Shown piece by piece: positions 12,001 through 15,000 of a DNA stretch of 47,572 bases; within the stretch, counting starts at the first letter, position 1; the number at the start of each line of letters is the position of its first letter. The DNA lies in the IMG/VR virus record IMGVR_UViG_651053023_000010. One strand, 5' to 3'. Source of the stretch: a virus. Lineage: Duplodnaviria; Heunggongvirae; Uroviricota; Caudoviricetes. Made by a program: the position numbers.

Positions 12001-15000
12001 TTGCCAGTGGCGATTTATACAACTCCGGCTACGGGTTATTTCCGTCTGAACAGGCACGTAAGGACTGGATAAAGGCCCGCAAAAAGATGTCGAAAGCAGC
12101 AGTGAAAAAAAAGAGCGACCCGGACCTGGTTTATTCATTACCAGACGGAGAAATACGCCGCTATGACAGGCGTCTGAACATAATCTGTCGCGAGTGTCGG
12201 AGGAGCGAAGCTATGCAGCGCGTACTGGCGTTTTACCAGAATGGTTTTCGAGAGATATTCGGTGAACAGGTTATGCATGAGGGAAATCATGGCACTCAGG
12301 TCAGTGTGTAGGCACGTTGACGGTAGAAAGCATATGGGGGATCGATCGTTCTTGTTATGCTGTAAGAGCGAAAGCGCAGGCGCTGGGTATCAACAGGATG
12401 TTACGGGGTGACTTTCACTTGAGCTAGTGGGATCAATTTTACTGTTGGGGTGGGGGGACGTTAAGTTGCTGACAATTTCGAAATGTTTTTGATAAAGGCA
12501 GCGATTTTCTTTGATGGAGGGGCTACAAAAAATTTTTCATGTGAAATATGATATCTGCGATGTTATCAAATGTGAAAATATTTATGAATCTGCAAAAAAG
12601 AAGAAAAGTTCAAAAACTAAACTATCGCGGGCAAGTTTCGAAACTGAAGAGGGGGATATTTAATTCTCTGAAAAGCACGGATTGGGAAGGAGTAGAAAAT
12701 GCGAAGAGAAAACTGGAATATTACAAACGCACTCGTAAGCTACGAGTCTCGAAGAAAAAGTTGACAACAAGTAATAAAAGGGTGGTTTTTTCTGCTCCGA
12801 TATCTATTAATTATTACAACGATCGTGATTTTGAAATCATGAATAAATTTTTAAATAATTTACGCGATTGCGTGTTGAAGAATAATCGTGTTTATATAGA
12901 TTTTTCTTCAACTAAATATATAAGTGCAGCTGCTATGTTATCTTTTCTCGCTGAAGTTGATGTGCTTATTAAGAAAAGTGAATTTGGAGTAAATGCCATA
13001 GGGTTTTCACATCCGAAAGACAAGAAAATTGAAAGCATTTTGAATCAAGTCGGTTTCTATGATCTATTAAGGAAACCTAAAAGAGAAACTGAAAGTTATG
13101 ATGATGTGACTTTTTGGAAATATACATCAGGTTCTTGTTCTGAGCCTCTTTTAGCAAAAGAAATGATGGTGGAAATAAAAAAAGAGTTAGAAAGAAAATC
13201 ATCAAAAAAATTATACCGTGGCTTTACTGAGGCCATGTCTAATTCTGTCGAGCATGCTTATGTTGATGATTTAATGCATACGGAAGATGACGAAACAGCT
13301 AAGTGGTGGACCTTTGCTGGCATACATGACAAAAATCTTACAGTGGTAATATGTGATAAAGGAGTGGGAATACCTTCAACATTGCCTAAAACACAAGGTG
13401 TAAGTGTGCTAATGAACATCTTCAAAAAACTTAGAGTTCCATTAGCAAATGTAAAGGATTCTACTTATATAAAGGCTTCCACGTTACTTCAGGAAACGAG
13501 GACTGGGGAGCTGAACCGAGGTAAAGGCTTGAATGATATCAAATCGGTAATCGATTCAATAGGTGATGGTTTTATGGGGATTTTTTCATCAAAAGGGCGC
13601 TATATTTACAAAGGGAAAACTGGCATTATTAACGAAGTGCTTAGAGATTACAAAAGCTCTGTTAATGGTACTATAATTGAATGGACAATTCCTTGTGAGG
13701 TGGAAACTGAGTAGTATGAAAATTATAAAAGTAGCCAGTCGTTATCCTTGCCCAGGACCTCGTTTTAAAAGATTGGGGCCCGCTTCTGGTGAGGAGTTTC
13801 GTGAGTGGGTAGAAAGAGAGCTTAAACATTCACCAGATCTAACAATAGACCTTGATGGAACGGAGGGGTATGGTTCTTCTTTCTTGGAGGAGTGCTTTGG
13901 CGGATTGATTAGGCGTGGCGTGAGTCCTGATAAGGTTAAAGGGATTAAATTTATCTCAGAAGAAGAACCTGAGTTAATTGACGAGATAAATGAATATATC
14001 GAGGACGCTATAAAGGTATCTCATGGCTAATTCAAGTATCCAGGTCTGTACTTGGAGTGCAGACTTTTGGTGTAAGTTTTTTTCTTTGTTTAAAGATGAA
14101 AATCAGTATGTAACTTGGTTTTTAGTTTTAGTTGGATGGGGGATTACGGCATATATTGCTTATCTCCAAACCACAAAAAGTAGAGGAGATGCTATTAAAG
14201 ATGCTCATAATGAATGGATCGGTGAGTTTAGACAAAAACTGGAGTTGCTTGAGGATTTTGCCTTAGAGTTCTGGGCTGAAGATAATAATAAAGAACCTAC
14301 ACTGGCGTTAGCAAAAATGAGTAGGGAGGTTAAGAGTTTAACTACTATCGCTAAAGAAATTGAAAGGGCCGGTGGTGAAAAATATAAGGCAAAATTGTTT
14401 AAGGAATTACGCCAAGCCATGACATATGATAGTGATGTTCACAACCGACCTCTAAGACCTGATTGTATGCAAATTGTTAGGATTAGAGAAACATGTGCAA
14501 GTTTGAGAAGTGCGTACGGGCGCAAAAGCTTGACTGAATAACCTCATATTGCTGAGTAGCTGGTACTGCATATTATTATGAAAACACATCGTGGTTTTTA
14601 TATAAAAGCTGCTTATTATTAAGAGATCTGTTTTATGTTTTTGGCTAGTAAAATGTGATTCTTAACTTAAATGTTCCCTTACACTAGATTTATAATATCA
14701 TCGTGTGATTTATAAACTATGCATTAGTAATAATTAATTTTTCGGAAAAATAGTTAAGTAAAATTGCTGCGTGTGCTTGAGGCTATCTGCCTCGGGCATG
14801 AACACCAACGGCAGATAGAGAAAAGCCCAGTTAACATTACGCGTCCCGCAAGACGTTTAATATTAAACTTAGGCCAATTTCATGCTAGACACATGGATGT
14901 TAGCCTCTTACGTGCCGAAAGGCAAGGAGAAGCAGGCTATGAAGCAGCAAAAGGCGATGTTAGTCGCCCTGATCGTCATCTGTTTAACCGTCATAGTGAC

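Follow-up and report, generated by a model that had tools for sequence, protein, structure and literature searches.

A three-gene cassette in a Rac-like lambdoid prophage of Escherichia coli probably constitutes a phospho-switch defence system of three components, to be classed with abortive-infection or toxin-antitoxin systems; it would share its build with the VapKSC system and would employ a membrane protein as effector. The cassette lies in the IMG/VR virus record IMGVR_UViG_651053023_000010 (Caudoviricetes), which comprises 47,572 nucleotides (nt) and is referred to as the window. It encodes a putative serine kinase of the GHKL type (gene 1, K), a small STAS protein of the DUF4325 family (gene 2, S) and a single-pass membrane protein (gene 3, T), all on the same strand (Table 1). 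An initial annotation had proposed these genes as a candidate undescribed anti-phage defence or abortive-infection module. As far as comparative genomics allows, this reading is supported by the homology of K and S to VapK and VapS, by the contents of the corresponding slot in sister prophages, and by the mobile contexts in which related trios have been found.

Homology of the kinase-STAS pair and features of the three proteins

VapKSC has been described as a three-gene toxin-antitoxin and defence operon composed of the kinase VapK, the STAS antitoxin VapS and the PIN toxin VapC (Chambers et al., EMBO J 2026, PMC13373217). VapK, which joins a STAS domain to a GHKL domain, phosphorylates Ser48 of the 116-aa VapS, whereupon VapC is freed; the system protects against phage Bas42 by ∼2 logs, Ser48 of VapS has been found experimentally essential, and 289 vapKSC operons have been reported (PMC13373217). 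With the VapK and VapS sequences taken from the AlphaFold 3 supplementary file of this paper, alignment of the K profile with VapK covers the whole kinase domain at an hhalign probability of 95% (E 3.8e-8). VapS belongs to the Pfam family DUF4325 (PF14213, E 2.7e-17), which is also the family of gene 2 (E 5.6e-12, over the curated cut-off), where it is the sole domain found and where it had been recognised at the outset. Ser48 of VapS aligns with S54 of gene 2, and pairwise identity amounts to 16-23% only. Judged from these profile matches, the K-S pair is a homologue of VapK-VapS, by which the cassette is linked to a CHARACTERISED system.

The open reading frame of gene 1 spans 12548-13714, and the ATG at 12584 is preferred as start by RefSeq/PGAP as well as by the alignment of homologues. 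The Bergerat-fold motifs noticed in the initial annotation hold throughout the family, as all catalytic boxes, i.e., the N-box, G1 (D258xGxG), G2 (R312-G-K-G315) and G3 (G362-T363), are invariant among 54 homologues of 30-82% identity. Searches of gene 1 against Pfam and NCBIfam have returned only sub-threshold matches to HATPase_c, RsbW and SpoIIAB, and phmmer against PDB sequences has returned nothing; in structure, K comes closest to SpoIIAB, RsbW and UsfX, which are kinases of the partner-switching type. The STAS segment that had been suspected upstream of the kinase domain is recovered by fold. A profile of this domain has found nothing among PDB sequences either, and its hhalign comparison with gene 2 is not significant, the STAS assignment of gene 1 being drawn from the predicted fold, to which the sequence by itself adds no support. 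The STAS fold is preceded by a strongly basic segment with 23 Lys/Arg against 4 Asp/Glu in the first 66 residues, which is modelled with a predicted local distance difference test score (pLDDT) of 85-93 over residues 1-50 and which also occurs in the Arcobacter and Bacteroidota-like homologues. These basic helices are a candidate ligand- or membrane-binding element.

The ATG of gene 2 follows one nt after the TAG of gene 1 (13712-13714), not two as had been stated, and the 8-nt overlap between gene 3 and gene 2 stands, so that the three genes are indeed closely coupled. In S, the motif GYGSSFLEExFGGL is near-invariant in 43 homologues and contains the two serines that are the candidate phospho-acceptors. 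The best match of the gene 2 profile in the PDB is the STAS antagonist 3t6o, a weak hit (E 0.029) whose GSSF aligns with the S motif; phmmer of gene 2 against PDB sequences has found nothing. Conservation decreases in the order S > K > T in 8/8 comparisons, which fits S as a hub that touches both partners and T as the fastest-evolving component. The most distant trios (loci L066-L076, with K at 22-28% identity, on low-GC Bacteroidota-like phage contigs) encode longer S proteins of 139-145 aa (e.g., L068 6884-7318) with an additional conserved C-terminal segment of ∼40 aa (…WEERRIK…AWF.L..G.L..KIWI) that is not present in enteric S.

Gene 3 belongs to no family in Pfam, NCBIfam or PADLOC scans. 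The single transmembrane helix originally assigned to it corresponds to an N-terminal hydrophobic helix that is present in 36/36 distinct T orthologues, and the basic residues that follow this helix in most of them suggest an N-out/C-in topology. In the AlphaFold 2 model (pLDDT 79), T consists of helices only, with the transmembrane helix running into a long helix and further helices packing as a bundle. Orthologues from enteric and marine bacteria are homologous to gene 3 down to 19% identity; the distant ones share almost no conserved polar residue and none that looks catalytic, which argues against an enzyme and fits a non-enzymatic membrane effector. A PIN-like gene 3 has been considered and dropped, as neither a PIN nor any other Pfam match is obtained, the model is devoid of beta strands, and the N-terminal helix recurs in every orthologue; a HEPN-like protein has been dropped likewise, since the Rx4-6H motif is missing.

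Table 1. Position of the cassette genes, their predicted domains and motifs, and the ends of the cargo segment (window coordinates).
Feature	Position	Strand	Remarks
Left end of cargo: AT-rich non-coding leader, 5' of gene 1	12256..12583	+	sister homology ends and GC falls; holds alternative in-frame ATG 12548
Gene 1 (K), 376 aa: GHKL serine kinase domain of SpoIIAB/RsbW type, preceded by a basic helical N-terminus and a STAS fold	12584..13714	+	
K residues 1-60: two helices in strongly basic N-terminus	12584..12763	+	confident model prediction
K residues 62-186: STAS-fold domain (by predicted fold)	12767..13141	+	
K N-box EAMSNSVEHAY	13229..13261	+	E216, N220, E223, H224 invariant
K G1 box DKGVGI	13355..13372	+	D258, G260, G262 invariant; aligned with VapK DFGVGI
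K G2 box RGKG	13517..13528	+	R312-G315 invariant; aligned with VapK PRGLG
Gene 2 (S), 104 aa: DUF4325 STAS-like, acidic C-terminal helix	13716..14030	+	Pfam PF14213
S54-S55 in GYGSSFLEE: candidate phospho-acceptor	13875..13880	+	S55 invariant, S54 at least 90% conserved (43 sequences)
Gene 3 (T), 172 aa: putative effector that crosses the membrane once, with an all-helical C-terminal domain resembling a bundle	14023..14541	+	
Predicted transmembrane helix of T (~residues 30-50)	14110..14172	+	Kyte-Doolittle 19-residue maximum 1.73 at residue 30
Right end of cargo: AT-rich non-coding tail	14542..14743	+	sister homology restarts 14744-14752; GC 0.35-0.38

Recurrence of the trio and its genomic contexts

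The order K-S-T is collinear in all of the more than 60 independent loci with enough sequence to judge, and the genes are tightly spaced or overlapping, with the third one encoding a protein of 130-179 aa that carries an N-terminal hydrophobic helix. K, S and T form one unit. Such trios occur in Amphritea (58% identity of K to the window), Vibrio cholerae (53%), Klebsiella/Raoultella (46%), two lineages of Citrobacter (41% and 32%), Erwinia (32%) and a metagenome-assembled genome of Arcobacter (25%), and in addition on 52 IMG/VR contigs, some of which are Bacteroidota-like and encode a K of 22-28% identity. An exhaustive profile search has yielded 995 kinase clusters (at 50% identity) with E <= 1e-30 and 3437 with E <= 1e-3; a peptide-pattern scan of genome contigs, with its narrow patterns, has retrieved 5 loci only. 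Decayed copies have been encountered as well, on two viral contigs: in L037 (6653-7132) the K frame is split despite 100% DNA identity along the greater part of it, and in L033 a third gene behind S was not found. Inactivation of the module thus occurs in nature.

The prophage that carries the cassette is inserted beside ttcA. The cassette itself is 100% identical in E. coli UMNF18 and 23 further complete genomes (among 5426), in each of which it is chromosomal; megablast of the phage collection has given zero matches. The operon had been perceived as more rich in adenine and thymine (AT) than its surroundings, and indeed the guanine-cytosine (GC) content lies at 0.30-0.40 over ∼12400-14800, compared with ∼0.50 in the flanks on either side. 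By blastn against four sister prophages, homology ends at 12235-12255 and restarts at 14744-14752; the break and return of homology around the AT-rich block therefore define a discrete insertion of ∼2.5 kb (∼12256-14743), which contains exactly the three cassette genes and short non-coding flanks. In the corresponding slot, 3' of the DUF977 gene, one sister Rac-like prophage carries IetAS (annotated as anti-phage ATPase IteA and S8 peptidase IteS), another carries QueH, a Dcm methyltransferase and an NgoMIV-family restriction enzyme, i.e., a type II restriction-modification (R-M) system, and others carry small genes of unknown function. The proposed location in a defence hotspot is thus borne out by the proven anti-phage systems that related prophages carry at the same position.

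The slot as a whole extends from ∼12235-12255 to 14744-15547 (sister loci L021-L024), from the DUF977 gene to hok/sok or a DUF1367 gene, and represents a Rac-like cargo hotspot whose upstream flank (at least 80% coverage) is present in ∼940 E. coli genomes. Directly to the right of the cargo (window 14771-15094) lies a hok/sok type I toxin-antitoxin locus, identified by the Rfam sok family with 97.6 bits and by the annotation of hokD in the identical UMNF18 record, in agreement with the hok-type toxin previously placed there. It forms the right-hand limit of the variable slot in sister prophages and is missing in the IetAS-bearing variant.

Beyond this prophage, the trio has been found repeatedly at positions of accessory cargo. 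The V. cholerae trio adjoins a type I R-M system, and in a P4-like satellite the trio follows the primase gene, beside a variable stretch where one variant has putAbiC. P2-like phages carry the trio between the gpA and terminase genes, an interval that is occupied by old/tin in P2. In 14 IMG/VR loci and in the Citrobacter, Erwinia and Arcobacter prophages, the trio directly follows the maintenance repressor gene (of the S24 type or the 186 CI type) in the same orientation, often with int coming next; this placement right after a co-oriented repressor implies co-transcription and expression in the lysogen. A sigma-factor regulatory module has found no counterpart in these surroundings, as neither a sigma factor nor a PP2C phosphatase is annotated up to 14 kb on either side of the cassette in the identical UMNF18 record. 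The Klebsiella/Raoultella, Vibrio and other trio loci examined are likewise devoid of an annotated phosphatase or sigma factor, and almost all contexts are mobile rather than housekeeping ones. The absence of the phosphatase from the trio loci fits a one-way switch.

Elsewhere in the window, a second AT-rich island (GC 0.32-0.40; 17421-18146 and 18157/18214-18639) is located just 5' of the lysis genes and is annotated in the identical RefSeq record as a scabin-related ADP-ribosyltransferase and a subtilase-family AB5 toxin binding subunit. It looks like a prophage-borne toxin pair of the AB5 type at the position taken by Stx in Stx phages. A 478-aa protein encoded between the terminase and head genes (24273-25709; L001 25874-27310) is named 'anti-CBASS protein Acb1 family protein' in RefSeq; its place among these genes and its length point to a portal-like structural protein in which the domain is fused or mis-assigned. 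The left arm (1-9100) carries, according to the annotation of the identical record, ralR, kilR and a ydaT-family toxin beside a repressor/cro pair. At least five toxin-type loci have thus been counted in the prophage on top of the cassette.

Proposed mechanism and rival explanations

In the mechanism that we favour, K would act as sensor kinase, in which a SpoIIAB-type GHKL serine kinase domain is fused to a STAS fold and basic N-terminal helices, and S would be its small DUF4325 STAS substrate. T would reside in the inner membrane as a bitopic protein whose cytoplasmic helical domain is kept inactive by unphosphorylated S; that S and not K restrains T is what we infer by analogy with VapKSC. 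An infection-associated cue would switch K on, K would phosphorylate S at the conserved Ser54/Ser55, and phospho-S would let T go. The freed T may then oligomerise or otherwise harm the membrane, and the infected cell would stop growing before the phage cycle is completed. As regards the cue, CapK, an HTH-STAS-GHKL kinase which phosphorylates the STAS-wHTH (winged helix-turn-helix) repressor CapS, is triggered by single-stranded DNA (ssDNA), and the same trigger has been proposed for VapK, activation depending on a conserved aromatic residue where the STAS and kinase domains meet (VapK F54, CapK W68) (PMC13373217). This trigger cannot be assumed for K, whose own cue is probably a different one.

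A number of observations weigh against the defence system as proposed. The hhalign comparison of the K STAS domain with the N-terminus of VapK is not significant, the two being not alignable, and the position equivalent to VapK F54 (∼Y112, placed by eye as the STAS domains are unalignable) varies within the K family; the ssDNA trigger is therefore not simply transferable. The scan of the cassette surroundings in this prophage has revealed no consensus sigma-70 site on the + strand and nothing convincing as a promoter, the terminator scan around the cassette has revealed no terminator-like site, and leaders aligned from six contexts share no regulatory element, the leader being not conserved elsewhere. 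With no promoter or terminator found and an unconserved leader, expression of the cassette in this lysogen is therefore not established. The Amphritea copy, the only one of its kind, is an isolated islet among housekeeping genes. PADLOC-DB v2.0.0, the only defence annotation library applied, yields no match beyond chance for the 54 K homologues (best E 2.7e-4, in one member) and none for the 43 S homologues. The fold matches of the T model are generic helical bundles; the toxicity of T and its action on the membrane are presumptive, as is the anti-phage phenotype of K-S-T.

The same three proteins could be wired differently within the same defence role. In a partner-switching arrangement, which we consider unlikely, K would sequester the cytoplasmic domain of T, unphosphorylated S would displace K and thereby free T, and the ATP or ligand state of K would decide. 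This would agree with SpoIIAB, RsbW and UsfX, the nearest structural relatives of K, each of which binds a third protein besides its STAS antagonist, and the extra domains of K (basic N-terminus and STAS fold) could touch T. In VapKSC, however, the only characterised homologue, it is the STAS protein and not the kinase that keeps the third component bound and inhibited until phosphorylation frees it. The strongest conservation is seen for S, as expected if it is in contact with both K and T, and a PP2C phosphatase that could reset a reversible switch is missing. More doubtful is a role in lysogenic conversion or the phage lifecycle, in which T would block DNA entry (superinfection exclusion) or tune lysis or induction of its own prophage, with K-S as regulatory input. 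The position of the trio directly after the repressor and before int in many prophages, and in the early-right region here, would suit such a role, and exclusion as well as holin/antiholin functions typically fall to small bitopic membrane proteins. But the cassette is interchangeable cargo in slots that are otherwise used by IetAS or R-M systems, trios also exist outside phages (beside a type I R-M system, or as a lone islet) and are thus not bound to one phage lifecycle, and a constitutive exclusion protein would need no conserved kinase switch.

A tripartite toxin-antitoxin, addiction or general stress module (answering, e.g., to DNA damage) with no dedicated anti-phage role appears very unlikely to us. 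The authors of VapKSC themselves call the boundary between immune and stress response fuzzy and consider a global signal probable for their system (PMC13373217), and the present cassette adjoins the addiction-type hok/sok locus. Such a module would nevertheless leave the repeated placement in defence hotspots of phages and satellites and beside R-M systems to be explained, and VapKSC does protect against a phage. Hardly any weight can be given, finally, to a transcriptional regulator pair of the CapK-CapS type that drives gene 3 or downstream genes. CapK-CapS pairs are encoded 5' of the operons that they control, among them CBASS, Bub and other immune operons (PMC13373217), and the kinship of kinase and STAS protein would speak for this option. 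Yet CapS requires a wHTH and CapK an HTH domain, whereas gene 2 comprises only 104 aa with DUF4325 alone and the N-terminus of K is predicted to form two long basic helices, and the 8-nt overlap of gene 3 with gene 2 leaves no promoter or operator between them. The phospho-switch in which S restrains a membrane effector thus remains our preferred reading of the cassette.

Novelty, significance and comparison with known systems

PADLOC-DB v2.0.0 (2023) returns chance-level matches only for the three window proteins (E at least 0.026), so that the PADLOC check called for by the initial annotation has matched no named system, and a PHROG scan of the three proteins has assigned them to PHROGs of unknown function only. 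In the searchable literature library, no system composed of a kinase, a DUF4325 protein and a membrane protein has been found described; the sole relevant paper is that of Chambers et al. (PMC13373217), and a domain-centric discovery paper of 2026 does not mention STAS or GHKL. The designation as undescribed is accordingly retained for the combination with a membrane protein but has to be given up for the principle of kinase, STAS antitoxin and toxin, which has been published since 2026 (PMC13373217). The cassette differs from the published principle in its effector and in the N-terminal extension of K, and probably in its trigger. The PIN toxin by which VapKSC is defined has been tested for and is absent, which keeps the cassette outside that system.

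The kinase-STAS immune switch has been known only since 2026, with one effector type, the PIN nuclease, and one regulator type, and is tied here to a membrane protein. An effector swap of this kind is to be expected; what makes the candidate worthwhile is the family size, the association with phages, the membrane effector and an E. coli example in a defined hotspot. In size the family equals or exceeds the published one, with 995 kinase clusters (E <= 1e-30) set against 289 vapKSC operons, and most of it is found in prophages and satellites, among them those of enteric pathogens, of Vibrio and of other phyla. If the proposed function is true, a named system would be gained that PADLOC v2.0.0 now misses, together with a clear example of how effectors are exchanged on a conserved sensor/antitoxin chassis and a tractable E. 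coli model of STAS phosphorylation that frees a membrane toxin. The Rac-like slot between the DUF977 gene and hok/sok would then be a defence hotspot in which IetAS, R-M and K-S-T alternate. One may go further and regard K-S-T as a large, cross-phylum, phage-borne immune family in which STAS serine phosphorylation directly gates a membrane-permeabilising protein and in which the kinase senses a cue other than ssDNA via its basic N-terminal helices and divergent STAS domain, phage protein, RNA and membrane perturbation being candidates for this cue; this joint proposal is possible but is put forward tentatively. It would make the kinase-STAS pair a portable 'sensor plus safety catch' that evolution joins to unrelated effectors.

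Among membrane-acting immune proteins, Csx28 is a membrane pore associated with Cas13b. Its fold match to the T model ranks 33rd amid generic helical bundles and is non-specific, and T is devoid of a HEPN-like motif, so that Csx28 is taken as a lead only. The RexAB system of phage lambda is a prophage-encoded abortive-infection system that is cotranscribed with cI in lysogens and consists of a cytoplasmic sensor and a membrane effector, RexB being polytopic. Many K-S-T copies resemble it in sitting directly after the repressor gene, but RexAB does not involve kinase or STAS chemistry, and a kinship with it in sequence or fold has not been found, though no test was aimed at it. With the anti-sigma pairs SpoIIAB-SpoIIAA, RsbW-RsbV and UsfX-RsfB, the cassette shares a GHKL serine kinase with N, G1 and G2 boxes and a STAS antagonist with a serine, which in S is the candidate phospho-acceptor; it differs from them by a locus that lacks a sigma factor and PP2C, by the STAS domain of K itself, by a membrane protein as third partner and by its mobile contexts.

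Closer to the cassette are the two systems of the kinase-STAS immune switch. CapK-CapS likewise consists of a STAS-GHKL kinase followed by a STAS substrate with a conserved phospho-serine (predicted in the case of S), and both are associated with immune loci. In CapK, however, an HTH lies at the N-terminus, and CapS ends in a wHTH through which it represses, whereas S is composed of DUF4325 only and K has no match to an HTH family; the targets of CapK-CapS are separately promoted, in contrast to gene 3, which is translationally coupled to gene 2. In VapKSC, the third gene encodes a PIN nuclease, in the cassette a membrane protein with one transmembrane helix and a domain made up of helices only, and VapK starts straight with the STAS domain, which in K is preceded by a basic extension of ∼60 aa. 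Apart from these differences, the gene order of kinase, STAS protein and third gene is the same in both, a phosphatase is absent from both, and both are often located near defence genes. A STAS fold together with a GHKL kinase domain is found in K as in VapK, and S and VapS are both DUF4325 proteins of ∼105-116 aa that end in a helical tail and in which a conserved serine opens the same helix.

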